Part shown: positions 4,184 to 38,594 of the stretch, in pieces
Layout of the letters: the number at the start of each line of letters is the position of its first letter
Position numbering within the stretch: the stretch's first letter is position 1
From: a virus
UHGV virus genome: UHGV-0197990
DNA length: 60,272 bases
Reading direction: 5' to 3' (one strand)
The notes under the pieces: model-generated
The model's database searches: none
Seen by the model: the letters and a program-made list of their open reading frames with translations, nothing else
What the model was told of the DNA's origin: nothing
Translations under genes and position numbers: made by a program

Positions 4184-4188
4184 AGAAT

Positions 4189-9012: not shown

Positions 9013-9468
9013 ATGGCAAAGATATTTAAAGTAAGCGGATATATGATTGATACGGACAATTTTCATAGATTAGGCGAAATAGAAAGCGGTATTAATTATG
9101 CTCTTGATGGTATGATACATCAGCATGTCCACATAGAAGAAGCGGATATAGGAGAGTGGGATGATGAAAGCCCACTTAACTATGATAATTGCGACCTTGC
9201 GGATTGCGAGAAATACTTCAAGAGAAAAGTTCCAGTAGATAATGATAGAAATGTTATTGCAGGACAGATCTACAAGCATTTCAAAGGACATACAGTTAAA
9301 GTTCTACATATCAGCCAGGACACAGAATCACCAGGGCAGTTCTATGTAGTCTACGAATGTGAGGATGGAGCTATTTGGAGTAGACCTTATGGAATGTTCG
9401 TGAGCGAGGTTGACCACGTGAAATATCCAGATGTGAAGCAGAAATACAGATTTGAGTTAATGGAGTGA
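9013..9468 (+). CDS. DUF1653 domain protein
   Basis: 151 aa. C-terminal IYKHFKGHTVKV...FYVVYECEDGAIWSRPYGMF matches DUF1653. Confidence 0.6.
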   Translation: MAKIFKVSGYMIDTDNFHRLGEIESGINYALDGMIHQHVHIEEADIGEWDDESPLNYDNCDLADCEKYFKRKVPVDNDRNVIAGQIYKHFKGHTVKVLHISQDTESPGQFYVVYECEDGAIWSRPYGMFVSEVDHVKYPDVKQKYRFELME

Positions 9469-9560
9469 TGAACAGTGAAAAGAAGTACAGACAGAAGAAG
9501 ATGTCCAGCAGAGATTAAAGCAAATCCGAAAAAGCATTAATTGTGAGAGGAGCGATTATT

Positions 9561-9960: not shown

Positions 9961-10296
9961 ATGAGAACACGTTTTCACAAATTATATAGATGCGAGTTGG
10001 ATTTTTTGATTGAGAATTGCAATTTCACAGAGGATGAAAAAGTATTGATTTCTATGGCAAGTCAGCAGAAATCAGATCAGGAAATTGCAAGCAAACTAAA
10101 TATAAGCACTTCGTCTGTGACAAAGCGTAAGAAGAAAGTTAACAAAAAAGTTTTGGATTTTTTAGAAAAAGGTGATTACATGACAACTGTTTATGTTAAT
10201 GGAGAACGTGTAAAAAAAGAAGAGCTTGATAAAATTGAGATTCACATGGAAAATGTTAAGAAAATTCTATCCGAGAAATTGACTAAAAATGACTAA
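9961..10296 (+). CDS. sigma-70 region-4-like / ArpU-family transcriptional regulator
   Basis: 111 aa. ISMASQQKSDQEIASKLNISTSSVTKRKKKV is an r4-type HTH. RBS GAGGGAAGG. Confidence 0.5.
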   Translation: MRTRFHKLYRCELDFLIENCNFTEDEKVLISMASQQKSDQEIASKLNISTSSVTKRKKKVNKKVLDFLEKGDYMTTVYVNGERVKKEELDKIEIHMENVKKILSEKLTKND

Positions 10297-10356
10297 TGGT
10301 TTAGAATTGGCTTAGGGTGAAAACTTGGTCAATTCTTTTTTGAAGGAGAATTGATT

Positions 10357-11700
10357 ATGGGGAAAATGAATGTAGCTTACATGAGAGTTTCAACAGAAGC
10401 TCAGACAGAAAAGTACGGATTAGACGTGCAAAGGGACAAGATTCAGGACTTGGCTGACAAGAATAATGCAAAAATTGAAAGGTGGTATGTTGACGGAGGA
10501 TATTCTGGAAGTAATATTGACAGACCAGAAATGCAGAGACTTCTTGATGATGCAAGAGACGGGAAAATTTCTTCGGTGTATGTATACAAACTTGACCGAA
10601 TGAGCCGAGATGCGATTGACACACTTACTCTTCTTTACCGGACACTTCCAAAATACGGAGTAAAGATAGAATCTGTTACAGAAGAACTTAGATTTGAAAC
10701 ACCAATGGATAAAGTAATGGTCGGCGTAAATGCCATTATGGGGCAGTATGAAAGAGAAGTCATATATATGAGAACTCGTGCCGGGATGGTCGAAAGAGTC
10801 AAGAAAGGCTTGTGGATGGGAGGCGGGAATCAACCATACGGATATTACTATGACAGAAACGATGGAATACTTCATCCAAAAGAAGACGAAGCTGAAAACG
10901 TCAGAAGAATGTTTGAGATGTATAACAGCGGAATGTCTTGCAGAAGCATATCCGAAATTCTCGGAATAAAATGTGAAAAGGTTGTAAGAGATGTTTTGAG
11001 GAGAAAATCTAATATTGGATACATTGAGTATAACGGAGTGCTATACAAAGGACTGCACGAGCCAATTGTTGATGAAGATGTGTTTTGGAATACTCAAGAG
11101 CTTATAGAGCGGAGATCAAACAACTATTACCTTGCCAATAAACATATTCTTTCAGGACTATGCTTTTGCGGAAAGTGCGGCGCAAAGATGAGATACAAAA
11201 TGTGGGGCAGTTACTTTATCCTTGAGTGTTATTCCAGAGAGGGAACAAAAAAGAACATGGTGAAATCAAGTCACTGTGATAACAAAAGGAATAAAGCTTC
11301 ATATATTGAAAAAGAAGTCACTGACTGTTTCAAGAAGTTTATCATCAATGTCGAGCCAAACTCAGACAGATCAGAAAATAAAGAACTTGTTAAGAACGAG
11401 ATAAAAAAGTCGAATGAGAAGTTGAAAAGATTGTATCTTCTGTATTCTGATAGCGGAAATGATGTCCTTTTTGGAGTAATAAAAGATGAAGAAAAGCGAT
11501 TAAATTCCTTAAAAGTAAAATTAGAGGATGAAATCCGAAGAGAAAACTCAAATAAGGAATCGAAAATCAAAAGAATAAGAAAAATGTCTGACATATGGGA
11601 CGAACTTGACACTCAAGAGAAGAATAAAATTCTCAAGGAGTGTATTGAAAAGATTATTATTACGGATGATGATATAGAAATAAGATTTAATATCGAATAA
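10357..11700 (+). CDS. large serine recombinase (phage integrase type)
   Basis: N-terminal resolvase catalytic motif YMRVSTEAQ, recombinase domain and C-terminal Cys4 zinc ribbon (CFCGKCG...C). ATG 10357 preceded by GAAGGAGA. Confidence 0.9.
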   Translation: MGKMNVAYMRVSTEAQTEKYGLDVQRDKIQDLADKNNAKIERWYVDGGYSGSNIDRPEMQRLLDDARDGKISSVYVYKLDRMSRDAIDTLTLLYRTLPKYGVKIESVTEELRFETPMDKVMVGVNAIMGQYEREVIYMRTRAGMVERVKKGLWMGGGNQPYGYYYDRNDGILHPKEDEAENVRRMFEMYNSGMSCRSISEILGIKCEKVVRDVLRRKSNIGYIEYNGVLYKGLHEPIVDEDVFWNTQELIERRSNNYYLANKHILSGLCFCGKCGAKMRYKMWGSYFILECYSREGTKKNMVKSSHCDNKRNKASYIEKEVTDCFKKFIINVEPNSDRSENKELVKNEIKKSNEKLKRLYLLYSDSGNDVLFGVIKDEEKRLNSLKVKLEDEIRRENSNKESKIKRIRKMSDIWDELDTQEKNKILKECIEKIIITDDDIEIRFNIE

Positions 11701-11874: not shown

Positions 11875-12051
11875 ATGTTTTCAGATGCGATACTTGTTCA
11901 GATATTCAGTGATGATCGTCTCAATGGCATCCCACTTGAATATCAGTCAACGGTTGTTCATGTTGTAGAAGATGTGATTGACAGAAGATTCTACACTGAT
12001 AAACCGTTCGCTTCAAGAGAAGAGATACTTGAGGATGTGTGTGAAAGATAG
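11875..12051 (+). CDS. small hypothetical protein (58 aa)
   Basis: RBS AAGGAGG spaced 7 nt from ATG. Below the track cutoff. Confidence 0.4.
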   Translation: MFSDAILVQIFSDDRLNGIPLEYQSTVVHVVEDVIDRRFYTDKPFASREEILEDVCER

Positions 12052-12061
12052 GAGGTCTATC

Positions 12062-12565
12062 ATGTACGAGAATCCATATTTCGGAAATCCGTACTTGCAG
12101 CAGAATCAGCAGAGGTACGGAACTCCATATCAGCAACCAGTTCAACAGATGCAAGCTCAACAGCCTGCTTACAATCAGATACAACAGGTCCCGCAGCAGA
12201 TTCAGCAACCACAACTGATTGGTCACATTGTTGATGGTCAAGAGACGATACAGGCAAGTGACGTTCCAATGAACGCTCCTTATGCGCTGTTTCCAAAAAA
12301 TGATTTGTCAGAAATCTATTTAAAGTCATGGACTGCCAACGGAACTATTCAGACAATCGTCTTTAAGCCTGTTCAAAATCAGCAGACAGACAATTTACCG
12401 TCTACTCAATCAGAAATGAAAATAGGGCTATCTGACGATGCGACAGAAGCGTTTATGAAGAGATTTGACGAGCTTGGACGGAAGCTTGATGAACTGGAAA
12501 ACTCTATGAGCAACAGCAAACCGAAAACACGGTCTACAGTCAAAAAGGATGGTGACGGAGAATGA
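12062..12565 (+). CDS. Gln/Pro-rich hypothetical protein
   Basis: ATG 12062 preceded by AGGAGG. N-terminal Q-rich low-complexity segment. The tracked ORF starts upstream at 11978. Confidence 0.5.
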   Translation: MYENPYFGNPYLQQNQQRYGTPYQQPVQQMQAQQPAYNQIQQVPQQIQQPQLIGHIVDGQETIQASDVPMNAPYALFPKNDLSEIYLKSWTANGTIQTIVFKPVQNQQTDNLPSTQSEMKIGLSDDATEAFMKRFDELGRKLDELENSMSNSKPKTRSTVKKDGDGE

Positions 12566-12780
12566 ACCCAATTAACCTTTTCGGAAATCCTCAGCAGTTT
12601 TTAAAACAGATGATGGGGAATAATCAAGTAATGAACAACCCCATGGCCAAGAATGCTCTTGATATGGCTCAAAAAGGAGACATGAAAGGAATAGAGCAGT
12701 TGGCAAGGAACCTTGGAAAAGAACAAGGAACAAATGTTGATGAACTTATGAATCAAATAAGAAGTAAGTTTGGATTATAG
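12562..12780 (+). CDS. hypothetical small protein
   Basis: 72-aa ORF, translationally coupled. Confidence 0.4.
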   Translation: MNPINLFGNPQQFLKQMMGNNQVMNNPMAKNALDMAQKGDMKGIEQLARNLGKEQGTNVDELMNQIRSKFGL

Positions 12781-12847
12781 CATATTAGAGGTTTGTGCAC
12801 AGAAACTCGAGAAACCTCTTTATGAATAAAATTAAGGAGGAACTAAT

Positions 12848-13627
12848 ATGTTTAACTCAACTAACACACCTTTTACAATGCCAGTCATGCCAGCAACAGG
12901 CGGTTACGCTGATGGAGCTGGTTGGGGAGACGGGGGATGGTTATGGATCATCGTCGTATTCGCACTGCTTTTTGGCTGGGGAAACAATGGATTTGGTAAC
13001 GGATTCGGAAATGGTGGCGGTTATGCAGCAACAGTAGCTACACAGGCTGACATTCAGAGGGGATTCGATACTCAGAACATTGTTGGAAAACTGGACGGAA
13101 TCAACAATGGATTGTGTGATGGCTTTTACGCTCAGAACACAGCTCTGATGAATGGATTCCACGGAGTTGACAATGCAATCTGCAATCTGGGATACCAGAC
13201 ACAGCAGGGATTCAACACAACAAATGTTGCTTTGATGCAGGGTCAGAATGCATTACAGGCACAGCTTTCCGATTGTTGCTGCCAGAACAGAGAAGCTATT
13301 TCTCAGGTAAGATTTGACATGGCACAGGATACATGCGCTTTGCAGAACACAATGAATACGAACACTCGTGACATCATTGAGAGTCAGAACGCTGGAACAA
13401 GAGCAATCCTTGATTACCTCTGCCAGGATAAGATCGCTACATTACAGGCTGAGAACAACGATCTGAGACTTGCAGCTTCACAGGATAGACAGAATGCTCT
13501 TCTGACTACTGCAATGACAGCTCAGACAAATCAGATTATCAATGCTGTAAACCCTACACCAATTCCGGCATATCAGGTACCTAACCCGAATGTGTATTAC
13601 GGATGCGGTAATGGATGTGGTTGTTAA
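12848..13627 (+). CDS. Gly/Asn/Gln-rich membrane-anchored protein with C-terminal CGNGCGC
   Basis: 259 aa, RBS AAGGAGG. One TM (WLWIIVVFALLF), GNGFGNGFGNGGG repeats and a Cys cluster. Confidence 0.5.
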   Translation: MFNSTNTPFTMPVMPATGGYADGAGWGDGGWLWIIVVFALLFGWGNNGFGNGFGNGGGYAATVATQADIQRGFDTQNIVGKLDGINNGLCDGFYAQNTALMNGFHGVDNAICNLGYQTQQGFNTTNVALMQGQNALQAQLSDCCCQNREAISQVRFDMAQDTCALQNTMNTNTRDIIESQNAGTRAILDYLCQDKIATLQAENNDLRLAASQDRQNALLTTAMTAQTNQIINAVNPTPIPAYQVPNPNVYYGCGNGCGC

Positions 13628-13839
13628 TGACCAACAATCAAAACGGAAACTACTCTTTTCTTGATATGTTGAACGTCTTTTCCGTTATCTTGCAGATGAT
13701 TGGATACGACCAAGATCAGAAGCAAACGTCTAATGATGACTTGCTAAGAGCCTTGCAGAGACAGGACAGGGAGTATCTCGAGAAGATAATTTCCAATCAA
13801 AATCAAATCTTGGATATTCTTTCCAAGACGAATGAGTAA
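13627..13839 (+). CDS. hypothetical small protein
   Basis: ATG overlaps the upstream stop (TAATG). Confidence 0.35.
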   Translation: MTNNQNGNYSFLDMLNVFSVILQMIGYDQDQKQTSNDDLLRALQRQDREYLEKIISNQNQILDILSKTNE

Positions 13840-13934
13840 CTTAACTTAAATGTTATGTCTGCTATAAGCAGTATTACGAATACAAGGGGCAGACTACAAA
13901 TAGTTTGTCCCTTAAATTATGGAGGTAAAAGACT

Positions 13935-14357
13935 ATGGCTGAATATTTAGCTGTTTCTGCTCAAGAAGTAGCAGTGAACGGAAATGTTATCTTTACAAAC
14001 ACGGCAGTTCAAGGAAATAACTGCATTAAACATCGCGAGGGTTCTGGAATCGTTACTCTTAGAGGAATCACAAATCAGTGCAGAGCGCGCTATTTTGTTG
14101 ATTTTTCAGCAAATATCGCAGTACCGACCGGAGGTACAGCCGGAGCAATCTCACTGGCTATCGCAATCAGCGGAGAGCCTGTTCTTTCTTCTCAGATGAT
14201 TAGTACTCCGGCAGCAGTTGACCAGTACAATAATGTATCTGCTGGTATCTATATTGACGTACCGGCCGGATGCTGCGTGAATATCGCTGTCGAGAATACA
14301 AGTACGCAGGAAATCAACGTGGCAAATGCGAACCTTGTTGTTACAAGAGAAGCTTAG
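13935..14357 (+). CDS. BclA C-terminal domain-like (C1q/TNF-fold) exosporium-type protein
   Basis: 140 aa. AQEVAVNGNVIFTN...GIYIDVPAG...ANANLVV pattern as in BclA_C family proteins. RBS GGAGGT. Confidence 0.5.
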   Translation: MAEYLAVSAQEVAVNGNVIFTNTAVQGNNCIKHREGSGIVTLRGITNQCRARYFVDFSANIAVPTGGTAGAISLAIAISGEPVLSSQMISTPAAVDQYNNVSAGIYIDVPAGCCVNIAVENTSTQEINVANANLVVTREA

Positions 14358-14370
14358 GAGGTGAACGAGT

Positions 14371-15003
14371 ATGCATATCAAACATATACATGAATTGATT
14401 GAAAAGCTTTCTGAGTGCGCTTGTTCTGAACTTTCTAGCGGTATTGAAAACGTTAATACTTGCGAGATGGGACAGGTCATCGACATGATTAAAGACCTTG
14501 CAGATGCCGAATATCATGCAAGAATCTCAAAAGCTATGGAAGAAGCTGAGGAAGATGAAAAAGAGGAAGAGAAGTATCTTCTAAAAATGTTCAAAGACCA
14601 GTACGGTGAAGAGGATGCCAGGAGATATTATGACGAATACCGTTATAAGTCCGGCAGATTCGCTCCGAAAGGTCACGGAATGAGAAGAGGATACAATGAG
14701 CCGCCTTATTGGCACATGACTCCTGAGATGTATCGTGACTGGGACACTGATCGTGACATGGACAGAGACAAGCACGGAAGAATGTATTACACAGAGCCTA
14801 AATCATCCAGTCGCTATGATATGGCTCGCCGTGGCTATACAGAAGCAAGAGATACACACAAGGACAAGGACACTAAGATGCATGAACTTGAGTCCTACAT
14901 GACAGAACTCGGAAAAGATGTAAGCGATCTGATTTCCGGCATGTCACCAGAAGAGAGGACTCTTGCGAAGTCAAAGCTTGCTACTCTTATCAATAAGATG
15001 TAA
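14371..15003 (+). CDS. hypothetical charged protein
   Basis: 210 aa, RBS AGGAGGTG. Confidence 0.45.
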   Translation: MHIKHIHELIEKLSECACSELSSGIENVNTCEMGQVIDMIKDLADAEYHARISKAMEEAEEDEKEEEKYLLKMFKDQYGEEDARRYYDEYRYKSGRFAPKGHGMRRGYNEPPYWHMTPEMYRDWDTDRDMDRDKHGRMYYTEPKSSSRYDMARRGYTEARDTHKDKDTKMHELESYMTELGKDVSDLISGMSPEERTLAKSKLATLINKM

Positions 15004-15005
15004 TT

Positions 15006-15036
15006 CACGGGAGGGCGAAAGCCTTCCCTTTTTAAG
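15006..15036 (+). terminator. rho-independent terminator
   Basis: GGGAGGGCgaaaGCCTTCCC stem with GAAA loop followed by TTTTT. Confidence 0.75.
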
Positions 15037-15047
15037 TAGGTGATTTG

Positions 15048-15374
15048 ATGAATTTCTATATCAATGATGAATTATGGCATGTCCAATATGAAAATCCATC
15101 CAGTGAGCTACTGAGACGGTCAGACGGTGTTTACACGCTTGGTGTTACTGACAGAATGACCAATACAATCTATCTGTCTAATCGTCTCTCAGATACCATG
15201 TTTGACCGCGTTCTTTCCCATGAGCTGACTCACGCTGTTTGCATGACCTACGGAATTTCTCTTCCTATAGAAACAGAGGAACGCCTTTGCAATTTTATTT
15301 CTGACCATGCGAGAGAAATTATTTCATTGACTGATTTGATTGAAAATATTTTGCTTGCTCGTGTTGTTTATTAA
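15048..15374 (+). CDS. small HExxH zinc-metallopeptidase-like protein
   Basis: SHELTHAV motif. ATG 15048 after AGGTGA. Confidence 0.4.
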   Translation: MNFYINDELWHVQYENPSSELLRRSDGVYTLGVTDRMTNTIYLSNRLSDTMFDRVLSHELTHAVCMTYGISLPIETEERLCNFISDHAREIISLTDLIENILLARVVY

Positions 15375-15397
15375 TTCCATTTGTGCTATAATAATAT

Positions 15398-15530
15398 CAG
15401 CGACGAGAAATATGTGAAGAACGAATGGGATTCAGATCAACAAGGGTCAGGAATCGTCAGCCTGAGTATACTGAGAAAAATGATAGTACAAAATACTGTC
15501 TTTACTCTCAGCGTACTCAGGCTTTTTTAT
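15398..15530 (+). ncRNA. structured RNA copy 1 (about 130 nt) with its own promoter and intrinsic terminator. Paralog of 23752-23884
   Basis: TTGTTT-17-TATAAT promoter at 15364-15392. Conserved core ATCAGCGAC.AGAAAT..GTGAA...CGAATGGGA...GGAATCGTCAGCC. Hairpin TCAGG/CCTGA competes with terminator stem GCCTGAGTA...TACTCAGGC followed by T6. Confidence 0.55.
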
Positions 15531-15779
15531 TTCTCTCATATACTCCAGTGATGGTGCTGGATACGAAAAACGGAATACCGACCAGTGATGCGTCTGGTTA
15601 CGAATTGAACGGTGCAGAGTCTATTGAGTTAGGCTCTGCTATTTCTGACAAAAAAATAAGAGTTGCCTACCGACCAAAGTACCAGCTCTTAAAACAACCA
15701 ATCTAAAAGGATGCTTACTAAATTATAATAGCACATCCTTTTGGAAAAACCAACGTTTTTATGAAAAGGAGAAGAAAAA

Positions 15780-16484
15780 ATGAATGAATTAAGCGTATTT
15801 AAAAATGAGGAATTCGGAGAAATCAGAACTGTAATTATTGAAAATGAACCAATGTTCTGTTTATCAGATGTATGTAAAGCATTGGGTCTTACTCAGCCAT
15901 CAAAGGTAAAAGAAAGACTAAATGAAAAGGGTGTGAGTAGTATTCCTACCCTTACAGCTGGTGGAGAACAGAAACTTCTCTATATTAATGAGTCCAATCT
16001 CTATAAGACGATTTTCCAAAGCAGAAAAGAATCAGCCGAGAGATTTACAGGCTGGGTAACATCCGAAGTCCTCCCATGCATCCGAAAGAACGGAATCTAC
16101 GCAACAGATAACGTTATTGATAATATCTTGAATAACCCGGACTTCGGTATTGAGCTTCTGACCAAACTGAAAGAAGAAAGAGCAGCAAGAATTGAAGCTG
16201 AAAAGACAAATGCTATCCTTATGCATGTCAACAAAACATATACCATGACAGAAATTGCGAAAGAGATCGGTCTGAAAAGTGCAAATGAACTGAATAAGAT
16301 TCTGGCTGAAAAGAAGATTCAGTATAAGTCAAATGGAACATGGGTTATGTACTCTGACTATAGCGATCTTGGATACGAGTCTATAAAGCAAGAAACACTT
16401 GATAGCGGTCGTGTGATTTATCACAGAAGAATTACACAGCTTGGAAGAAAGTTTATTTTAGGTTTGTTTGACTTAGCTGCATAA
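15780..16484 (+). CDS. phage antirepressor, Bro-N domain plus KilA-C-like C-terminal domain
   Basis: 234 aa. N-terminus FKNEEFGEIRTV...CLSDVCKALG (Bro-N). Confidence 0.8.
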   Translation: MNELSVFKNEEFGEIRTVIIENEPMFCLSDVCKALGLTQPSKVKERLNEKGVSSIPTLTAGGEQKLLYINESNLYKTIFQSRKESAERFTGWVTSEVLPCIRKNGIYATDNVIDNILNNPDFGIELLTKLKEERAARIEAEKTNAILMHVNKTYTMTEIAKEIGLKSANELNKILAEKKIQYKSNGTWVMYSDYSDLGYESIKQETLDSGRVIYHRRITQLGRKFILGLFDLAA

Positions 16485-19468: not shown

Positions 19469-19489
19469 GTTTAAAAAGGAGTGATTCCA

Positions 19490-20229
19490 TTGAAAAAATA
19501 CCAGAAAGACGCGCAAAACCGTTATAACTCAAAGTTTGATATTGTGCAAGCTAGATTACCGAAAGGAACGAAAGAGCGGATACAGAGCCTAGACTACACT
19601 ATAAACGCTTTTATCGTTGAAGCAGTAGAAACTATGCTTAAATCATTTGAAACGCCAACAGCCCCGATTTTAGAGCCTACAGAGAGCGTTTTGCAGATCG
19701 AAGAAGAGACGAAAGAGGTCGACCAGATGGCAGCAGTTGAAGTGATGCCATGGGAAGAGGGTTTTGTTGATCCTTTGTCTGAGTCAGAAGAGGAAAAGAA
19801 GAAAGAGAAATCTGCTAAATTCTTAGCTCGCAAATATGGGGAGCAAATCACTGACATTGTTATACAGAAAGACTTGATAAATACTTACAGCGTGGATATT
19901 TTGCAAAAGCGAAAGAATACGTTAAGCACCCGGAACTACTGGAAGAACCGGAACAGGAAAGCAAGCCAGAAGAAAAGGGCATTCAATCACTTGAGGAATT
20001 AAACGAAGAGCTTTCAAAGAAGAGAGCAGAAGACGCTGCTAAAATTTCCGAAGAAGAAGAACGCCGTCAAAATTACTGGAAGAATATACAAGAGTCAAAC
20101 AAAGCAGACATCGTGAACCATTTCAAAAGAATGCGAAACGGCTCTGAAATGACCGAAGAAGAGCGAAAGAAAGAAGCAGAACGGGAAGAATGGAAGAAAA
20201 AGAACAACAAGGAATTCGGCGTTTGATTC
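19490..20229 (+). pseudogene. RHH DNA-binding protein gene with an apparent -1 frame change (C-terminal half continues in another frame to 20229)
   Basis: N-terminus DIVQARLPKGTKERIQSL..INAFIVEAVETML is RHH. The frame starting at 19490 turns into a basic nonsense tail after about 19860. An overlapping frame, open 19855-20229, encodes a plausible acidic coiled-coil with no start codon. Confidence 0.4.
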
Positions 20230-22576: not shown

Positions 22577-22976
22577 TTAGGCACAAATGCAATAGGCATA
22601 TTATACAAATATTAAGCACAAATACAACAGCGTTTTTGTCTATTATTTATTAAGCACAAATAAGCATTGAAAATAAGGCGTTAATATACTATAATGAAAG
22701 AAAACAGGAAGGGAGATAGAAAGATGCCAGAATATACAGAGAAGCAGAAAGAACAACGTAGAAAAGCAGTTGCGGAATATATGAAAACAGTTGATCGTGT
22801 TAATTGTCAGTTTCCACTAGGAACGAAAGAAAGAATAAAAGAGCTTACCGGGAAAAGCTGCAACGCCTTTATAAAAGAAACAATATTAAAAGAACTGGAT
22901 AAAATAGAAAGAAAGAAAGTTAAAACAAATTAAGCACAAATATTTACATTATTATATATTGACATTAGGCACAAAT
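22577..22976. promoter_or_regulatory. operator set: five 12-mers TTARGCACAAAT at 22577, 22613, 22650, 22930 and 22965, flanking RHH gene 22724-22933. Consensus promoter TTGACA-17-TATAAT at 22959-22987 with an operator in the spacer
   Basis: Exact or near-exact 12-mers, direct orientation, paired at 35-37 bp spacing. Confidence 0.6.
22724..22933 (+). CDS. ribbon-helix-helix DNA-binding protein (paralog of the 19490 RHH)
   Basis: VNCQFPLGTKERIKELTGKSCNAFIKETILKEL parallels IVQARLPKGTKERIQSLDYTINAFIVEAVETML. ATG 22724 after GGAAGGGAG. Tracked ATG 22694 sits in the -10 box. Confidence 0.55.
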   Translation: MPEYTEKQKEQRRKAVAEYMKTVDRVNCQFPLGTKERIKELTGKSCNAFIKETILKELDKIERKKVKTN

Positions 22977-23330: not shown

Positions 23331-23751
23331 ATACTTGTTAGTTCAAACTAACAGAGCAAGTAGGGTTACAAAACTGTTAACAAATTGTTACGATAAATAT
23401 TTAACAAATGCCAACTAAGCCAGTAAACACAAGGGCAAACAGGGATTTTATAAATGTTACGCTGTGCAAATTATTATGCTATTTGTATACAGATTGGATA
23501 CAGAATGGATACAGGAGAAAAAAGATAGAAAACGAGAAAGAAAAAAAGAAAGAAGCAAAGAAATAAAAGAAAGAGTTAAAAGACAGAAATAAAGAGAGAT
23601 ATATACCCGACTTTCGCCGTCGAAAACAAACGCCCAGGAACGAACGCAGACCAAAAACCGATTGAAAACACGGACGCACACACCTTGATAAAAATTTAAA
23701 ATTAATTTATTCGACACTATTGCAAACAGATTTTCGTTGTGTTATAATGGC

Positions 23752-23884
23752 ATCAGCGACAAGAAATCCGTGAAAGCCGAATGGGAGCTGGATCGAAAAG
23801 AGCTAGGAATCGTCAGCCTAGGCATATCGAGAAAATAACAGACAATGAGCTGTTCAATATCTCGGTGTGTCTAGGCTTTTTTGT
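23752..23884 (+). ncRNA. structured RNA copy 2 (paralog of 15398-15530), directly upstream of gene 23920
   Basis: Promoter TTGCAA-17-TATAAT (23720-23748). Same conserved core as copy 1. Compensatory changes in hairpin CTAGG/CCTAG and in terminator GCCTAGGCA...TGTCTAGGC followed by T6. Confidence 0.55.
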
Positions 23885-23919
23885 TTATAGATTATTTGAC
23901 AGTGCGGAGGTGAGAAACA

Positions 23920-24606
23920 ATGGCTAAGAGAAGAACACAGAAAACAGAGAGAGTAGGAGCTGAGACAGTGAACAGTGTTGAAAGTGTTGAAGTTGATCCA
24001 GTCAACCTCAGAGCCTTAGTCGATGACGTGATCACTGATTACTGCATTAGAGATGATCTTGACGAATCAGACATTCCACCACAGATCTGGAATGACATCA
24101 TCGAAGAGATCAGAATAACACTGTTCGAGAAGAACGGCAATCTGCTCTGGATCAATGGCAGCATTGGCGGAACCTATGACGATGAGAAAGTCATGAATGC
24201 CTATAAGATTTACAAGAGAATCTGCAATAGACACTGCCAAGTCGTAAATATCAAAGGGTTCTCGGATATGTCTGGGATAGACAAACAAACACTATATAAC
24301 TGGGATAAAGACAGTAGATATAACAGTAAATATAATCCTAGTAATAGTGGTGGTAATAGTAATAGACTAAGTAAAAAATATTTCGATTTGCGCAAGAAAA
24401 TCATGGACGATAACGAGCAATCACTGGAGTCAATGTTACAGGATAAGCGTATAAATCCTATGAAGGTGTTACCGTCACTTAACAGGCACCACATGTGGAA
24501 CCTTCCAGGCGTTAGCCGTGAGAAAGTGGAGGCAAGACCACTGACCGCAGACCAATTGCCACAGCTGGGACAGGATCTGACGCCACAGATCGAGGAAAAC
24601 GATTGA
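23920..24606 (+). CDS. hypothetical protein
   Basis: 228 aa. RBS GGAGGTGAG. Confidence 0.55.
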   Translation: MAKRRTQKTERVGAETVNSVESVEVDPVNLRALVDDVITDYCIRDDLDESDIPPQIWNDIIEEIRITLFEKNGNLLWINGSIGGTYDDEKVMNAYKIYKRICNRHCQVVNIKGFSDMSGIDKQTLYNWDKDSRYNSKYNPSNSGGNSNRLSKKYFDLRKKIMDDNEQSLESMLQDKRINPMKVLPSLNRHHMWNLPGVSREKVEARPLTADQLPQLGQDLTPQIEEND

Positions 24607-24864: not shown

Positions 24865-25092
24865 ATGAACAAAGACAAACCTGAAAATCTGAAAGATATA
24901 TTCGGTTTTAGTGACCTGAAAAAAGTTAATCCAATCTACAGCGTTGAATTAATAGATTGCGGATTCGTGATTATTGAAGCATCGAGCAGCAAGGTGGATA
25001 CAGAAAATGGGATAGTCACTTTTCAATCCGGAGATTCGGTCAATGCTATGTTCAGACTTAAAGATGTAAAAGAGTTCTGTAGGATTTACTAA
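24865..25092 (+). CDS. hypothetical protein
   Basis: 75 aa. RBS GGAGGAG. Confidence 0.45.
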   Translation: MNKDKPENLKDIFGFSDLKKVNPIYSVELIDCGFVIIEASSSKVDTENGIVTFQSGDSVNAMFRLKDVKEFCRIY

Positions 25093-25110
25093 GAAAAAGG
25101 AGCAAGGATT

Positions 25111-25338
25111 ATGTTGATTAAAATTACATTGGTTGCAATTGTTATATGCATAGCGTTGTTGATAATCTCAAGAATGTATTTCAGAACACTCAGCACTAGC
25201 GGAAAATTAAGATTTGTAGCCGGAATTAATTACAGAAAAGGCGAAAAGCTATTTTTGATTGTTACGGGAATAACATACATCGTTACTTTTGCTTTAGTTA
25301 TTGCATCTGTTATTTATTTGATTTTCAGATACGTGTAA
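25111..25338 (+). CDS. small membrane protein (2 TM)
   Basis: 75 aa. RBS AAAGGAG. Confidence 0.45.
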   Translation: MLIKITLVAIVICIALLIISRMYFRTLSTSGKLRFVAGINYRKGEKLFLIVTGITYIVTFALVIASVIYLIFRYV

Positions 25339-25413
25339 AGGAGTCTAACATGAGCAAAGAAGGAAAAAGAACATGATTTACAGAGATGTGAAAGCACTTT
25401 GGAGGGTTGTCTG

Positions 25414-25599
25414 ATGATTGATAAAGAAACGCAAAAAGCTGTTGATATGTTTTATAGCATTTATTTTGAGTTTTACAAGAAATGCCGAGATCGGAATACT
25501 GCAATTCAGCTGACATGTGCATTATGCGGTGTGAAAGTGCCTGAATTAGAAACATTTTCGTTTTTGTTTGGGAATAGTGGACGCAAGAGGAATGAATGA
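25414..25599 (+). CDS. hypothetical small protein
   Basis: ATG 25414 after GGAGGG. Confidence 0.35.
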   Translation: MIDKETQKAVDMFYSIYFEFYKKCRDRNTAIQLTCALCGVKVPELETFSFLFGNSGRKRNE

Positions 25600-25860
25600 T
25601 GGGCGAGAAAGATAAGAGAAGATAGCTTGATTGTCTTTGAACATGGAAAAGAAATCAGAGCGATTGTCAATAGCAAAGATATCAAGTACATCCTGAGAAT
25701 TGAGTAGGAGAGAATATATGCTGAAAATAATTCAACGCCTGTTCTGCCGACACGATCACGTGGTGCATGACCATTCAGATCTTGTTCGACAGGAAGACGG
25801 AAGTTTCAAGACAAAACATTATTGACGGTGTAAGAGCTGCGGAAAGGTGATATCAGGAAA

Positions 25861-26232
25861 ATGATTGCAAAGAAAGATTTAAAAGGATTGAGTAAACGGG
25901 AACTGAAAGAGATGCTGTGTTTGGCAAGTCAGTGGTGCGAAGAGTGCGGACTTGTTCTTGAGTTCAGAGACTGTTCGATGGAATTTGCCGGACAGGAAAT
26001 CGATGCAGATGCATTCGGAGAAGATATCGAATCTCTTGAGGATGAAACACTTCCATTCTCGTTTGACCCATATGAGGATTGCGACAGATCAGACCTAATT
26101 CGTGAAATCGATATTGCAGAAGAGAAGAACAGATATCTCGAAATAGACAATGAAGACTTGAAGACAGCAATTAGAGTTCTGGTTGATTTGTACGCTGGAG
26201 AAAGAAGATTCCTGGGCGATTCGTATGAATGA
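25861..26232 (+). CDS. hypothetical acidic protein
   Basis: 123-aa ORF. Confidence 0.45.
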   Translation: MIAKKDLKGLSKRELKEMLCLASQWCEECGLVLEFRDCSMEFAGQEIDADAFGEDIESLEDETLPFSFDPYEDCDRSDLIREIDIAEEKNRYLEIDNEDLKTAIRVLVDLYAGERRFLGDSYE

Positions 26233-26422
26233 TATCGGGTTCAAGGAACAGATTCTTCAGACATCATGTGAAGTTGTCAAAAGTGAGCTGATGAAACACG
26301 AAGAATTCTATGATGCGTTTGTCTCATCTGTTGAATCGGCACTGCATGAGATACCTGAGGTTTGCGAAAAGGCATCTGATATCGCTGAAAGAATCACGAA
26401 ACGTATTTCCGGGGAGGAATGA
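26225..26422 (+). CDS. hypothetical small protein
   Basis: ATG 26225 overlaps the upstream stop. Confidence 0.35.
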   Translation: MNDIGFKEQILQTSCEVVKSELMKHEEFYDAFVSSVESALHEIPEVCEKASDIAERITKRISGEE

Positions 26423-26423
26423 C

Positions 26424-26588
26424 ATGAGAATTGCCGGGAAAGAAATCAACGATGAATGTGTTCACTGCGGAGAGATTCTTGAATGCGAACTTTTCAAACA
26501 GGGACACGGAATCAGACAAGAAAGAATGAATGTGGTGCAAATGATTTCTTGTCAGATGAAGCACAGGGAGAAGAGAAATGCTGAGTAG
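26424..26588 (+). CDS. hypothetical small Cys/His protein
   Basis: ATG 26424 after GGGGAGGAA. Confidence 0.35.
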   Translation: MRIAGKEINDECVHCGEILECELFKQGHGIRQERMNVVQMISCQMKHREKRNAE

Positions 26589-27229
26589 AATGCTTTTGAT
26601 TTTTGCGAATATTACGATAGCGGTTGCATGGTTTGCGATGGCATGTGAGAATTACGAAGAAAAGAAATGGGGCAGGATGATGATTTCTCTGTATCTCTGC
26701 TTTATAAGTACCGCATCGATGTATTACATTTGTAAGTACTGAGAAAGGATTGAGAGAAGATGAAGAAATTAAGATGGGTTTTGGCAATTGCGTTTCTAAT
26801 TGCCGGAGTTGCCGGAGGACTTTATTTCGGAGGTTATGATCTCCTGTTTAAACCGATTTTTACAGCTTGCATCGCTCTTGGGATGCAGGACAACTTACAG
26901 CAGCGATTATTTGGACAACAATCGTAAAAGTATTTCTCTCAGTGATTGTCATATCGGTAATCATTTTTGCAGGATTTCTGGGATTTGCAATTTCCACGCC
27001 AGAAAAATAATTAAGATATTTACTAATACTTGGTTTTTATATTCGTCCATGTGACGATTCTCCACCTACTAGCGGAAAGCTGAACAAAGGGACGTCACAA
27101 GTCCCGGCAGGTTTGACCGATTCTGAAATCGGTGCCGTCAGAATATCGTTGTTGATTGTAATCTTACGTAATTAAGACTGGTTTTGCCGATGATCGGCAA
27201 GTAATTGAATGACGATTCACCCAGTCGTA

Positions 27230-27279: not shown

Positions 27280-27353
27280 TGCAGATGAGTGGAACGGAAT
27301 ACCACGCAAGAGTCATGATCTTGAAATAGTCGGTTCGACTCCGGCATCTGCTA
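27280..27353 (+). tRNA. tRNA-Met (anticodon CAT, elongator or Ile2-type)
   Basis: D-arm GTGGaacggaataCCAC. Anticodon arm CAAGA-gtCATga-TCTTG. T-arm GTCGGttcgactCCGGC. Acceptor 6 of 7 paired, U1-U72 mismatch. Confidence 0.55.
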
Positions 27354-27486
27354 TTTCTGAGTTTCACGGTTCTCAGAAACACCCCTCATGTACGCGCCCT
27401 ATGTGCAGTAAATATGCCATTTCCTTTAGATTAGTTTTGATTCCCATAAGTTTAAAGTGATTAAAATAATTCAAAAACCGTGAAAT

Positions 27487-27560
27487 GCTATCATAGCTCA
27501 AATGGATAGAGCAGTTGATTACGAATCAACAGGTTTTCGGTTCGAATCCGAACGGTAGCT
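27487..27560 (+). tRNA. tRNA-Arg (anticodon ACG)
   Basis: GCTATCA acceptor. D-arm TAGCTCAAATGGATAGAGC. Anticodon arm GTTGA-ttACGaa-TCAAC. T-arm TTCGGttcgaatCCGAA. Confidence 0.7.
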
Positions 27561-27623
27561 CTCTCCGAGTTTCGGAGAAAAAACTTTTTCATAACTTACT
27601 TTCCTTGCTACAGTGTAGCTGGA

Positions 27624-27703
27624 AGCCGTATAGCTTAATTGGTAAAGCGTTCGTTCTTACCCTACCCGGACGAAAGATTGAGGTTCGACTCCTTATACGG
27701 AAA
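27624..27703 (+). tRNA. aberrant tRNA-like gene (possible pseudo-tRNA): normal D- and T-arms but anticodon region with 7 extra nt (7-bp stem TTCGTTC/GGACGAA and 11-nt loop TTACCCTACCC)
   Basis: TAGCTTAATTGGTAAAGC D-arm and TGAGGttcgactCCTTA T-arm. Acceptor pairs only 5-6 of 7. Confidence 0.3.
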
Positions 27704-28435
27704 TTCAAACATGATTATCTCGGTGAAGAGTGATTTTTCAGTCATGCCGAGATGCAATGGTAACGAGATAGGCTTGTTCGAGATATTGGATAAGCTGATT
27801 CTTTCCACTAGGAGTGATCCTGGTGGTGGAGATGGGAACCATCAACAATGCCTTGTAGTGTATCATCATAGAGAAGTCAAATGCAGACTCCTTGTGGTCG
27901 GCGATCAATAGACGCTTGCAGTGCAAGAACAATCCATTTAGTTCGTGGTGTGAGAGACTACCAACAGCGATGGAAATTCTCAATAAGCTGATTTGCCTTG
28001 AAGCTGAGAAATCAGTGTATAACACAAGAAAGTCGTTAAAGTAGCGGTATGGCAAGTTCTTAATTTTACCAAAATGTTTTAAGTGGATAAAAAAACATTA
28101 AATAAAATATTCTGAAAGAACCGTGAAATTTGTAGGTATCAATCCTATGTGTGCTTATACAGTGGTAGGAAGCCAAGAGTCGCTCTCAGAAGCTCAGACC
28201 TATCATCACAGTGGCAGAATATGACTTTTACCATGATTGAATAAGGGGAAACCCTAATCATGTTTGAACAAAATTCAATCAGTGTTTTAGCTGCGGAGTT
28301 CGCTGAAGCTCGGAAACTAACGTTTTGTTAATAAAATACGTGGTTTATCGATTATATAATAAACTCCAATATTATAAAGAACCGTAGCAGTGCAAGGATT
28401 CCTTACGGCTTTCGAGGTAAATTTCTTGCAGCTAA

Positions 28436-28506
28436 GGGCGTATAGCTTAAAGGTAGAGCACAGGACTTTGACTCCTGGTGTACTGGTTCGATTCCAGTTA
28501 CGCTCG
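28436..28506 (+). tRNA. tRNA-Gln (anticodon TTG)
   Basis: GGGCGTA acceptor with one G-U pair. D-arm GCTTaaaggtaGAGC. Anticodon arm CAGGA-ctTTGac-TCCTG. T-arm ACTGGttcgattCCAGT. Confidence 0.7.
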
Positions 28507-29366: not shown

Positions 29367-29457
29367 ATATTAACAGCTCATGCCCGGATGCGGACAGGGA
29401 ACAGGGGAGTGCTCCTTAACTTTTTTATTTTAAGAGTTAGGGGGCACTTTTTGTGTT

Positions 29458-31194
29458 ATGGCGAGCGATTATTTGATTAAAACCGTAAAAGGGTATGAAA
29501 ATTACATAGAGCGTAAAGGGATTGACGAACAGGTTCTAGATGCGTACAGAGAAGCCAGCAAAGTTGCCCTGTTTAATAACAAAGATAACGATGGATTGAA
29601 AATTTCCGGAAGAGCAAGACAGCTGTATGAGCAGTTTATAATGAACAGCACTGGCGGTACTTCATGGGATTTGGAAAAATATGCATTTGAGAACGGGACA
29701 TATTACCAAATACTTGATGATTTCTACGATCTTATTTTAGCAGAAGCAAAAAACAAGTGCGTTGATAGCTACTTCCGGTACATCGAGAAGAAAAGAGAAC
29801 CAAAAGAGCGATTTTACATGCCTAGAAGAAAGCAATTTCTGAAAATCGGTCTTGTAGATGGCTTACAAGGAATGCTTGATGACAAGTACGATATGCTCTT
29901 GATTTCCCTCATACCCGGCGCTGGGAAAACTTCAATAGAGAAATTTTTCCTCAGCGGAGTCATTGGATGGTACCCAAAAGACTTCAATTTGTTCTATTCG
30001 CATAGCAGCGACATCACAAGAATGTTCTATGATGGCGAACTGGATATTGTAAAGAATCTAGGGGAGTATTGCTGGCATGATATATTTCCGAATTTGGCTG
30101 TTTCTGGAGAAAATGCGAAGATGGAGCAGTTCAATGTTGGAAAATACAAACCGTTCCCATCTGTTCAGTGCACATCTGTTGGTAGTAAGAATGCCGGAAA
30201 AGTACGTGCTTCTAAGTTTCTACTTGTTGATGATATGATCGGTGGAATCGAAGAGGCGTTAAACAGGAATATTCTTGATAAATTGTGGGACAAATACGCC
30301 GTAGATGCCCGTCAGAGAAAGATTCAGGACACAGACGGGAATAACTGCAAGGAAATTCATATAGCGACTAGATGGAGCGTACACGATGTAATAGGACGTA
30401 TTCAAAAGATGTATGAGGGTAATAACCGTGTAAAAACAATTGCGGTGCCAGACATTGATCCGAAAACAGGAAAAAGCAACTTTGATTATGAGTATAGCGG
30501 TTTTACTGTGGAATTCTTTGAAGACCAGCAATTACTCATGGACGATGTGTCATACAGATGTCTTTACAAACAGGAGCCAATTGAAAGAGAAGGACTTCTG
30601 TTCCCAGAAGAAAAGACAAGGCGGTATCTGAATTTGCCACATGGAGCACCGGAAATCATCACTGCTCAATGTGATACAAAAGGAAAAGGAACGGACTATT
30701 TTGTGCTTCCAGTCTTGCAGAAGTACGGAGAAGACTATTATTGTGTTGATTGCGTTTGCGATAATACAGCAGATTACGAATTACAGTATGAGAATGCATC
30801 AAACATCATTGTTGATAATCAGGTTCAAGAGTGTGAATTTGAGCGAAATGCCGGAGGAGACAGAGTAGCACTGGAAGTTAATAAGCGAGTAGAGCAAAAA
30901 GGATGGATATGCAATATTACGGATACTCCTACGGAAACGAACAAAGAAGCAAGAATCTATCAGTGCTCAAGCTGGATTTTACAGCACGTAATATTTAAGG
31001 ATTCTTCACTTTATACGCCAAAAGAGCCGTATGGAGTAATGATGAGTCTTTTGACAAGATATTCTGTTTCAGATAAAAAGCAGCTTGACGATGTACCGGA
31101 CGTTTTTTCAAACTTCGCTATAAGAATGACGGCAGGGACAAGAGAAGCAAAAGTCGAAGCGGTACACAATCCGTTTAGAGGAGGTTATAGATAA
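29458..31194 (+). CDS. terL: terminase large subunit
   Basis: 578 aa. Walker A-like ISLIPGAGKTS, ATPase and nuclease domains. Classical position before the portal. Confidence 0.9.
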   Translation: MASDYLIKTVKGYENYIERKGIDEQVLDAYREASKVALFNNKDNDGLKISGRARQLYEQFIMNSTGGTSWDLEKYAFENGTYYQILDDFYDLILAEAKNKCVDSYFRYIEKKREPKERFYMPRRKQFLKIGLVDGLQGMLDDKYDMLLISLIPGAGKTSIEKFFLSGVIGWYPKDFNLFYSHSSDITRMFYDGELDIVKNLGEYCWHDIFPNLAVSGENAKMEQFNVGKYKPFPSVQCTSVGSKNAGKVRASKFLLVDDMIGGIEEALNRNILDKLWDKYAVDARQRKIQDTDGNNCKEIHIATRWSVHDVIGRIQKMYEGNNRVKTIAVPDIDPKTGKSNFDYEYSGFTVEFFEDQQLLMDDVSYRCLYKQEPIEREGLLFPEEKTRRYLNLPHGAPEIITAQCDTKGKGTDYFVLPVLQKYGEDYYCVDCVCDNTADYELQYENASNIIVDNQVQECEFERNAGGDRVALEVNKRVEQKGWICNITDTPTETNKEARIYQCSSWILQHVIFKDSSLYTPKEPYGVMMSLLTRYSVSDKKQLDDVPDVFSNFAIRMTAGTREAKVEAVHNPFRGGYR

Positions 31195-31616
31195 TGGATA
31201 CAAAAACATATTTAGGACAGATTTCAAAGTTAAATTTCAGAATCAAGAACAAAATGGAAGAAATTAATCAGTTGAGAGATATGGCTTGTTCTATTTCTGT
31301 GTCTCCAAAAGAGGTTAATGTTCAGAGCAGCGGAGAACCTGACAAAATGGGAAGTCTTGTTTCTAAAATTGCGGATGCAGAAGTAGAGCTTGCGGATTCT
31401 GTTGAACGGTCACTGCAAAAGAAGAAAGAAATTGCTCAACAGATTGAAATGATTCCAAATGCAAATCAGTACAGAATCTTATACAACAGATATGTATTAT
31501 GCAAAGATTGGAATGTTATTAGTGTGGAAATGGGATGCACTTTCAGAAATGCCATGTCAATTCACGGTAGAGCATTACAAGAGTTTGAGAAGCTTTTCGG
31601 CTCTTATTATCTGTAA
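31194..31616 (+). CDS. DUF1492-like sigma-r4-type putative transcriptional regulator
   Basis: 140 aa. C-terminal YRILYNRYVLCKDWNVISVEMGCTFRNAMSIHGRALQEF is a sigma-70 r4-like HTH. Confidence 0.45.
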   Translation: MDTKTYLGQISKLNFRIKNKMEEINQLRDMACSISVSPKEVNVQSSGEPDKMGSLVSKIADAEVELADSVERSLQKKKEIAQQIEMIPNANQYRILYNRYVLCKDWNVISVEMGCTFRNAMSIHGRALQEFEKLFGSYYL

Positions 31617-33707: not shown

Positions 33708-33843
33708 TAGAAATAAGCCAGTCATTGAGAAATCAGTGGTTGGCTTTTTCTATATAAATTTGCATCCATGCGTCAAATGGAAAAAGAAAAAATCCATGCT
33801 GATAGAACAGCGAAATCAAATGTAGATCACGGAGGTAATAACT

Positions 33844-38188: not shown

Positions 38189-38594
38189 TTCATGGGTTTT
38201 CGACTTAGAGACACACATCTTCTCTATTGTTCAGAAGAAAGTAGGAGATAAGCTGAAAAGTAAGTATCCGAACATTCGTTTCACGACTACTTCAAAACCT
38301 AAAGGCGTGACCGTAAAATATCCAACAGTTTACATTCGTGAATTGCCTGGTGCAGAAAAAGCACGCACTTTGGACGGTGAAGATATCAGCGGAATCTTGT
38401 ATTCCATGCAAGTGGAAGTAAGTACAGATAAAAGTATTAAAGAAGCTAAGGCGGTTTTGAAAGAGGTTGCCTTGGTATACAAAAATATGGGGTTTGAAAT
38501 TAATTCATTTCCCGAAGAGAGTGACGGAGACGAATATTACCGATGTGTAATGCGAGTCAGACGAACTCTCGGAAACATAGATGCGTTGCACTGA
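38175..38594 (+). CDS. tail completion/terminator-like protein
   Basis: TTG start with strong RBS GGGAGG 6 nt upstream. Confidence 0.4.
   Translation: MEVDNSWVFDLETHIFSIVQKKVGDKLKSKYPNIRFTTTSKPKGVTVKYPTVYIRELPGAEKARTLDGEDISGILYSMQVEVSTDKSIKEAKAVLKEVALVYKNMGFEINSFPEESDGDEYYRCVMRVRRTLGNIDALH

Follow-up and report, generated by a model that had tools for sequence, protein, structure and literature searches.

The put sites of phage HK022 (putL and putR) are about 70 nt long, form two stem-loops, occur as two related copies after promoters and act in cis on the terminators of the phage operons (PMC9378689). In conAn2 of pLS20, canT of Tn916 and EAR, a nascent RNA near the start of the operon permits read-through of intrinsic terminators (PMC8191782, PMC11658703). 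We describe here a leader RNA that is present twice in virus genome UHGV-0197990 (the window, meaning the entire 60,272-nt stretch analysed) and compare it with these and other systems.

The 5′ domain of the leader is like HK022 put in its length of about 70 nt, in its two stem-loops and in having two copies per phage downstream of promoters. HK022, however, is a Gram-negative lambdoid phage, and put has no alternative pairing and is not fused to a terminator of its own. The conAn2, canT and EAR RNAs are likewise from Firmicutes, and conAn2 and canT reside in mobile elements, as does the leader, but they are about 300–450 nt long, belong to conjugative elements or a host operon and have no overlapping terminator. 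The lambdoid PR'-qut-tR' unit (6S RNA) and its Q protein resemble the locus in that a strong promoter, apparently constitutive, gives a short terminated transcript ahead of the late region, where further terminators lie. Q, however, recognises DNA and a sigma-dependent pause, whereas the constraint on the phage leader is one of RNA pairing, and a second copy stands before an antirepressor. In the RAT (BglG, SacY, LicT) and ANTAR (EutV, AmiR, NasR) systems, as in the leader, the 3′ side of a weak hairpin is the 5′ base of the terminator. These hairpins are thought to need a bound protein to win, and ANTAR targets likewise comprise two hairpins with conserved loops; the leader loops differ in being 9 nt long and unrelated in sequence, matching neither the ANTAR hexaloops nor the RAT consensus. 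The nutL and nutR sites of the lambda N system are also two related RNA sites after promoters, with sequences that differ between related phages, but the leader, as read from its sequence, has no boxA-like sequence and no boxB-type pentaloop hairpin.

Searches of most phage ORFs against Pfam, PHROGs and NCBIfam returned no Q, N, NusG/LoaP, CAT (CAT_RBD), ANTAR or other RNA-binding antiterminator, and no arginine-rich N-like protein was identified in the phage. Several of the scanned ORFs match no family. For a qut-like pause, no −10-like hexamer with both A2 and T6 was found in 23752–23776.

Anatomy of the leader and its paralog

The leader RNA upstream of gene 23920 is about 130 nt long and consists of two small hairpins joined to a long terminator. 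The features of the locus are as follows.

23720–23748, plus strand: predicted sigma-A-type promoter, TTGCAA (23720–23725), 17-nt spacer, TATAAT (23743–23748), with TG before the −10
23752–23768, plus strand: 5′ tail, AUCAGCGAC-R-AGAAAU, about 16 nt long and starting at the predicted transcription start, invariant, apparently unpaired
23769–23795, plus strand: hairpin P1, with P1a pairing 23769–23770 with 23794–23795 and P1b pairing 23775–23777 with 23787–23789
23771–23774 and 23790–23793, plus strand: symmetric internal loop of P1, UGAA/GGAU, invariant as UGAA/RGAU
23778–23786, plus strand: loop L1 of P1, CGAAUGGGA, 9 nt, invariant
23803–23821, plus strand: hairpin P2, candidate antiterminator, 5 bp, CUAGG (23803–23807) with CCUAG (23817–23821)
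23808–23816, plus strand: loop L2 of P2, AAUCGUCAG as RNA and AATCGTCAG as DNA, 9 nt, invariant
23815–23882, plus strand: predicted long-stem intrinsic terminator, a hairpin of about 62 nt and U6
23815–23832 with 23860–23877, plus strand: lower stem of the terminator, 18 bp, from an inverted-repeat search
23837–23841 with 23850–23854, plus strand: upper stem of the terminator, AACAG/CUGUU
23877–23882, plus strand: U6 (T6) tract
23906–23912, plus strand: ribosome-binding site GGAGGTG of gene 23920, 23 nt past the U-tract
23920, plus strand: ATG start codon, 37 nt past the U-tract
23920–24606, plus strand: gene 23920, encoding a 228-aa protein of an unannotated phage family; putative regulated gene

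A preliminary description of the locus had placed a promoter at 23720–23748, and both its sequence and its coordinates are borne out. In a promoter scan the site has 10 of 12 consensus matches and, additionally, a TG-extended −10. Promoter-like sites are not enriched in the region (29 observed against 31.8 expected); the assignment is made because the site is conserved, and not because of the consensus match. It is 81–100% conserved in relatives, as against about 62% identity in the intergenic DNA directly upstream. Scanning 23749–23920 revealed no further promoter-like site ahead of gene 23920. We infer that transcription would start at about 23752.

The tail, P1 and P2 together make a 5′ domain of about 70 nt. 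The tail is the same in both paralog types except at the one R position of the alignment; a covarying pairing partner was sought for it and none was found. The internal loop of P1 possibly forms a U.U pair plus tandem G.A pairs. A K-turn there was considered and rejected: the tandem G.A and U.U fit, but there is no 3-nt bulge and no C-stem. P1, the second hairpin of the domain, did not appear in the preliminary description. P2 did, with the correct sequence but one base too low, at 23802–23820. The terminator, with its T6 ending at 23882, stands as described earlier, but the gap of 36 nt given between it and the ribosome-binding site does not: the distance is 23 nt to that site and 37 nt to the start codon. 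The arms of the lower stem are 83% complementary by strict Watson–Crick pairing, and 18 of 18 positions are paired when G-U is allowed. A simple terminator scan, limited to loops of 3–8 nt, did not list this terminator, in which 27 nt separate the lower-stem arms; it is backed by the fold, the inverted-repeat search and covariation.

The element had also been called the second of two copies, correctly so. Copy 1 (15393–15529 without its promoter) is 76% identical to it over the 5′ core. BLAST of the copy-2 region against the window gave a single paralog, at about 15381–15479 and 76% identical, and a covariance model built on the 5′ domain scores just two sites in the window highly, with 105 and 103 bits. 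A supposed third copy at 55935–55983 (18 bits) was rejected, as P1 is missing and the match is no more than a GC hairpin where the repressor gene ends. In the alignment copy 1 has the layout of copy 2, with extended −10, 5′ domain and terminator plus T6.

15364–15529, plus strand: leader copy 1 including its promoter, a paralogous leader upstream of the Bro-N/KilAC antirepressor gene
15364–15392, plus strand: predicted promoter of copy 1, TTGTTT, 17-nt spacer, TATAAT
15413–15439, plus strand: P1 of copy 1
15447–15465, plus strand: P2 of copy 1
15459–15523, plus strand: terminator of copy 1, from the inverted-repeat search, followed by U6 at 15524–15529

Both promoters have the extended −10 TGTGYTATAAT, the version of copy 1 being TGTGCTATAAT, which ends at 15392.

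Covariation, folding energy and conservation

Covariation was assessed on 17 distinct leaders of the two paralog types, with controls in which the pairing partner was slid by one to three columns. In P1, four of the five pairs changed on both sides between or within types and every cell stays paired; in P2 two pairs changed on both sides (CUAGG/CCUAG against UCAGG/CCUGA) and one A-U became G-U; and in the lower stem of the terminator four of 18 pairs changed on both sides between types, all of these being very few independent events, as the diversity amounts to two paralog types and a few point variants. P1b changed at all three pairs (AGC/GCU in type 2, GAA/UUC in type 1), and the P1a pair 23769–23795 changed from C-G to U-A between types and also within type 2 (leaders L002, L014 and L026). 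P1 and P2 are jointly 99.4% paired, with six pairs changed on both sides against none in the slid controls, and the terminator lower stem has 97.7% of cells paired against 22–53%; over all three helices the figures are 97.7–99.4% against 10–53%. The two types differ at about 18 positions of the 5′ domain, 12 of which belong to compensated pairs. The compensatory changes thus support the fold and, with it, the earlier proposal of a structured leader RNA. The upper stem and loop of the terminator vary freely between the two types.

The 3′ arm of P2 is at the same time the bottom five nucleotides of the 5′ arm of the terminator, and because these five nucleotides are shared, P2 and the terminator exclude each other. 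The three arms concerned (P2 5′ arm, shared middle arm, terminator 3′ arm) change in concert, reading CUAGG/CCUAG/CUAGG in one type and UCAGG/CCUGA/UCAGG in the other.

The whole element (23752–23890) has a folding energy of −45.1 kcal/mol (z = −4.5), lower than that of any of 200 shuffles. The terminator contributes −33.3 kcal/mol in copy 2 and −34.2 kcal/mol in copy 1, P2 −5.1 kcal/mol, and P1, by nearest-neighbour calculation, −2.6 kcal/mol in copy 2 and +2.3 kcal/mol in copy 1. The 5′ domain alone is not stabler than shuffles (z = +1.35 and +0.14). P1 is marginal in energy yet fully compensated, which implies non-canonical pairs or a stabilising partner. The lower stem of the terminator, at 17–18 bp, is about twice the usual length in Firmicutes (9 ± 2 bp). 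When the P2 region is blocked in the fold, the remaining hairpin stops 6–7 nt short of the U-tract; under the established model of intrinsic termination, a hairpin that ends away from the U-tract should abolish termination. In Bacillus subtilis, terminator stems of more than 14 bp withstood conAn-mediated processive antitermination (PMC10325885), and the unusually long stem seen here fits a terminator that can be defeated only at its base.

Other roles and pairings for the same sequence were tried and rejected. Loop–loop and tail–loop pseudoknots (CGA with UCG; GAC(G)A with U(C)GUC) have partners that are all invariant and complementarity at chance level. A leader peptide starting from the conserved AUG in CGAAUGGGA (ORFs 23781–23927 and 15425–15706) has no Shine–Dalgarno sequence, its reading frame would run across the terminator and, owing to a 2-nt indel in the terminator loop, is not the same in the two types, whose differences are mostly non-synonymous. 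For a type III toxin–antitoxin RNA (ToxI/CptI), no tandem or direct repeat occurs in 23650–23950.

The absence of homologous leaders from related phages had been named beforehand as an outcome that would refute the element. Pattern scans of IMG/VR and of JGI/ENA metagenomes recovered such leaders, near-invariant, in more than 35 related contigs, of which those with a named source are human-gut metagenomes. Every recovered leader is either type 1 (like copy 1) or type 2 (like copy 2), and both types occur together on one contig in at least 15 cases. More diverged leaders of this class were not returned by the pattern scans, an nhmmer profile or the covariance model, and scans fixing only part of the element added only chance matches within coding regions. 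Across contigs the leader is about 97–100% identical, while its flanks drop to 60–80%. Compared with the window, type-2 leaders are 95–100% identical in the 5′ domain and 93–100% in the terminator, as against identities mostly of 67–95%, and down to 46%, for the downstream coding sequence; one phage with a gene-23920 homolog only 71% identical in protein sequence has a 100% identical leader.

The leader was never found in a bacterial chromosome context outside a prophage in the IMG/VR and JGI metagenome scans, and megablast and blastn found no close relatives in deposited phages at the DNA level. Neither copy matches Rfam at the gathering score, and at E-values up to 10 the only matches were spurious snoRNA and miRNA hairpins (12.8–25.4 bits against thresholds of 35–85). 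The leader is a real, strongly conserved RNA and, as we read it, a new family of a known regulatory kind.

Genome setting and the gene 23920 family

The window is the genome, of about 60 kb, of a temperate siphovirus-like phage of gut Lachnospiraceae, and the gene 23920 unit heads its late and packaging side. Its main features are listed here.

1–9500: replication and recombination genes
10351–11700: serine integrase
11978–15374: conserved block ending in an ImmA/IrrE-like ORF
15780–16484, plus strand: Bro-N/KilAC antirepressor, by profile annotation
after 16484: Sie-like and Rha-like genes, and an FtsK-like gene on the minus strand
24865–27054: small ORFs
27281–28506: four tRNAs and a ROOL RNA
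29458: large terminase
31999: portal
34798: major head protein
40051 onward: tail genes
54830: endolysin
55963, minus strand: repressor

Further terminator-like hairpins lie on the coding strand at 29405–29451 (seven bases before the large terminase gene), 33715–33746 and 38593–38606, with no strong promoter after them. Transcription of the late genes from the copy-2 promoter, if it occurs, must involve read-through that is processive or aided by other factors; a purely local switch would not suffice, and put-like and N/Q-like variants stay viable.

The product of gene 23920 has no profile match in Pfam, PHROGs, NCBIfam or the PDB, and a Foldseek search with its AlphaFold model (pLDDT 66) gave no fold match. 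The family comprises about 111 clusters, and its relatives in genome collections come from metagenome-assembled genomes of gut Lachnospiraceae and other Clostridia. Homologs 35–57% identical nearly all have a strong promoter, a leader of 100–250 nt and an intrinsic terminator 20–40 nt before the ribosome-binding site. Their leaders fall into unrelated sequence classes, at least five besides that of the window (class A), none of them in Rfam. The class C leader has a covarying hairpin, a variable linker of 15–20 nt and then the terminator, with a probable loop-to-3′ pseudoknot (GCGCCC/GGGCGC); class C phages gave one exact leader match per contig, in a search that would miss a diverged copy. 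Class D keeps only a promoter-proximal hairpin and UACACGAUUAAG, followed by variable spacers and differing terminators. Class A, unlike C and D, has a conserved RNA fused to its terminator, and the variable linker between RNA and terminator in classes C and D shows that an overlap switch is not the rule in the family. What the family conserves is the arrangement at the head of the operon, an RNA specific to the lineage and then a terminator. The nut/N and qut/Q pairs of lambdoid phages, in which site and protein co-evolve, show the same kind of pattern. Unrelated leaders at the same position favour a phage-specific effector over a universal metabolite, and the family context suggests phage-type antitermination, possibly processive, rather than metabolite-sensing attenuation.

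The effector is more likely to be a phage or host protein, or RNA polymerase itself, than a small molecule. A small ribbon-helix-helix protein (22694–22933) has homologs upstream of most leader classes but is unlikely to be a leader-specific factor, as it is replaced in most class-A phages with identical leaders. Among the uncharacterised ORFs, those at 2402–2923, 8023–8595 and 9961–10296 are basic or cysteine-rich; the last has a weak sigma region-4-like helix-turn-helix.

Mechanism and alternative readings

On balance, the element is probably an effector-dependent antitermination leader, in which a bound P1–P2 domain would withhold the base of the long-stem terminator. The course of events that we infer, from termination through effector-dependent read-through to co-regulation of both copies, would be as follows. 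A strong housekeeping-type promoter would start the RNA at about 23752, and its first 70 nt would form a domain of invariant tail, P1 and P2, each hairpin with its invariant 9-nt loop. By default the terminator would outcompete P2 (−33 against −5 kcal/mol), and the RNA of about 130 nt would end at 23882. A candidate effector recognising the tail and loops would hold P1–P2, the stem beside the U-tract would be blocked, and transcription would read through into gene 23920. Copy 1, in front of the antirepressor module, would respond to the same effector. Attenuation of gene 23920 was already part of the preliminary description, and it is supported computationally by the five nucleotides that P2 and the terminator share, by the covariation of the three arms and by the lack of another promoter. 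Counting against effector-dependent antitermination, P2 has only 5 bp, and no RNA-binding or antiterminator protein was recognised among the scanned phage ORFs. The linkers of classes C and D and the additional terminators of the late region weigh against it too.

It is possible, and we propose it tentatively, that the leader is one of several interchangeable lineage-specific RNAs of an undescribed antitermination system that gates the late region in siphoviruses of gut Lachnospiraceae, and that in this phage it has been duplicated for the antirepressor, the RNA either reprogramming polymerase or sensing a host signal. In either version a single RNA switch would set off both the release from repression and the expression of the late genes. 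To our knowledge, almost nothing is known of the timing of late genes and antirepressors in temperate phages of the dominant gut Firmicutes. Should the leader act directly on polymerase, it would be the first element of the put type from a Gram-positive phage. With polymerase or a host signal as effector, control of the put or riboswitch type would extend to Gram-positive gut phages and prophage induction would be tied to an RNA switch; with an ordinary phage protein, the leader would be another variant of the well-known antitermination theme. The leader is compact and tractable, with a clear structural model, natural compensatory variants and termination at 23882 as a read-out, and the other leader classes at the same position (at least five) offer a comparative set for finding the cognate factor or factors.

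We think it unlikely that the leader is a factor-independent antiterminator like put, with a nascent two-hairpin RNA that binds RNA polymerase and resists its own and later terminators. Regulation would then lie at the promoter, and the overlap between P2 and the terminator would be incidental, but the covariation of the three arms indicates selection for just this alternative. An antiterminator that is always active and stands in front of its own terminator would give control only if the promoters were repressed, and outside the transcribed region no operator-like sequence is common to the two promoters. The late-region terminators on the coding strand, without strong promoters, do call for processivity, although long-stem terminators withstood one RNA-based processive system. 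The separation of the RNA element from variable terminators in classes C and D also fits a put-like RNA, as does the failure to find a phage antiterminator protein among the scanned ORFs. The likeness itself (about 70 nt, two stem-loops, two related copies after promoters, one of them from the transcript 5′ end; PMC9378689) is architectural only, and Rfam, which holds no usable put model, gave no match.

Less likely still, the two elements would be stand-alone small RNA genes, insulating terminators or both, with constitutive leakage as the only source of expression of the downstream genes. A small RNA gene has just this anatomy of promoter, 130-nt RNA and strong terminator, and StxS, a functional by-product of termination from a lambdoid PR'-tR' unit, is a precedent (PMC7547250). 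However, no other promoter serves gene 23920 or its homologs, which always lie 20–40 nt after the terminator. The whole RNA, terminator loops included, is 99–100% conserved within each type, but the free variation of the upper stem and loop between types fits a purely structural role, and no site in the phage was complementary to the tail, L1 or L2 beyond the level of shuffled probes. Under effector-dependent antitermination, too, the terminated RNA could serve a second role besides that of leader.

We give lower credence to a riboswitch, in which tail, P1 and P2 would bind a small host metabolite or signal, stabilise P2 and switch on the antirepressor module and the late region. The layout is the classic one: directly after a promoter come an invariant tail and loops, stems that covary and an expression platform that overlaps the terminator. 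As in platforms that oppose an aptamer helix to a terminator, the 3′ arm of P2 is the terminator base, and two copies on different operons resemble a small regulon. The regulated genes are non-metabolic, however, there is no Rfam match even at E = 10, and the 5′ domain is no stabler than shuffles (z = +1.35 and +0.14). Instead of diverse taxa, the leader is confined to one narrow clade of gut phages and to two near-identical types, and the unrelated leaders at the same position in close relatives fit phage-specific protein/RNA pairs and not a shared metabolite.

It is very improbable that the element works as DNA, whether as an operator or as a conserved joint for recombination between phage modules, and that its RNA fold is incidental. 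The two copies do flank an 8.4-kb module absent from related phages, the sharply bounded 100% identity could reflect module exchange and the invariant tail has no RNA partner, but ten pairs changed on both sides preserve RNA pairing on one strand, an outcome that selection on DNA alone would not give.

The duplication can be placed by comparison with the other classes. In classes C, G and H a block homologous to 11978–15374 lies only 2–3 kb upstream of the gene-23920 homolog, and AT-rich non-coding DNA, rather than a leader, comes after it. As the 8.4-kb module is absent between block and homolog in these related phages, it is an inserted accessory module that here carries its own copy of the leader. 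The cargo 3′ of type-1 leaders varies, comprising antirepressor alleles, another Bro-N protein, an unrelated ORF or, directly, a Sie-like gene. In prophage L164 the type-2 leader stands alone within the 20 kb examined.

Sequences flanking the two leaders

The interval between the copy-1 leader (15393-15529) and the Bro-N/KilAC antirepressor gene that follows it (15780-16484) contains the following features.

15545-15604, two tandem hairpin repeats directly 3' of the copy-1 terminator, CCAGUGAUGGUGCUGG-AUACGAA and CCAGUGAUGCGUCUGG-UUACGAA
~15549-15706, 52-codon ORF overlapped by both repeats
15702-15745, hairpin holding the copy-1 extended -10 sequence, TGTGCTATAATAAT, in inverted form (15722-15735)

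The ORF is 84-98% conserved among relatives, and no Shine-Dalgarno sequence precedes it. The region 15545-15706 may represent either a small gene or an additional RNA element. Read on the minus strand, 15722-15735 is a promoter-like site directed back at the copy-1 leader, an arrangement that recalls the antisense control of antirepressor genes.

The promoter of the copy-2 leader, which precedes gene 23920 (encoding a 228-aa protein of an unannotated phage family), has 5' of it a low-complexity A/G-rich stretch at 23520-23600, the flanks of which differ among relatives; the ORFs that span the stretch are all doubtful. Two paralogous ribbon-helix-helix-like proteins of the Arc/Mnt type are encoded at 19481-20002 (N-terminus) and 22694-22933, and in most of the leader classes their homologs directly precede the unit formed by the leader and gene 23920. 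The smaller gene (22694-22933) is replaced by other genes in most phages with class A leaders, the class found in the window.

Leaders and other RNAs in related phages

At least five more leader classes (B-F), unrelated in sequence, occupy the same site 5' of gene-23920 homologs in the loci of other phages (L037-L087, each in its own coordinates). A promoter and a terminator are present in every one of these classes, and Rfam has no family for any of them; the class C leader includes a covarying hairpin and, probably, a pseudoknot. RAGATH-18, type II hammerhead and pistol ribozymes, together with int-alpA RNAs, also occur in related phages, at most a few kb from the homologous locus. In class C and H phages, the DNA directly 3' of the ImmA-like gene is non-coding and AT-rich and holds CCCCCTATGTT as a repeated motif; this stretch is possibly a site of packaging or attachment, or else a genome end.

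Sites in the loci of related phages
Example class B-F leaders: L063 3700-4000; L041 3700-4000; L037 3750-4000; L065 3800-4000
Example ribozymes and int-alpA RNAs: L044 6253-6326; L063 2029-2098; L065 1820-1885; L083 3076-3435; L066 6769-6837
AT-rich regions with CCCCCTATGTT motifs: L066 2000-2150; L084 2510-2660; L087 3320-3440

Structured RNAs and possible regulatory genes elsewhere in the window

Downstream of copy 2, a ROOL RNA (27695-28275; 369 bits) is enclosed by a cluster of four tRNA genes at 27281-28506 (Met-CAT, Arg-ACG, Lys-CTT and Gln-TTG). Its 5' end is adjoined by the tRNA-Lys (27624-27703), which is 80 nt in length and, in the Rfam alignment, unusually long in the anticodon-loop region. 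Terminator-like sites on the coding strand follow.

29405-29451, very long hairpin, in which 20 pairs were counted, plus a T-run; ends 7 bases 5' of the large terminase start codon
33715-33746, coding strand
38593-38606, coding strand

Two small ORFs have features of a sigma-70 region-4-like or LuxR-like helix-turn-helix and may encode phage transcription regulators: 9961-10296, for which the NCBIfam and Pfam matches are weak, and 31194-31616, judged from sequence only and oddly placed, with the terminase gene on one side and the portal gene on the other. In the early region, the ORF at 5973-6317 matches Tad4, an inhibitor of Type I Thoeris (PF25186, E = 1.8e-36), and is a predicted anti-defence gene.
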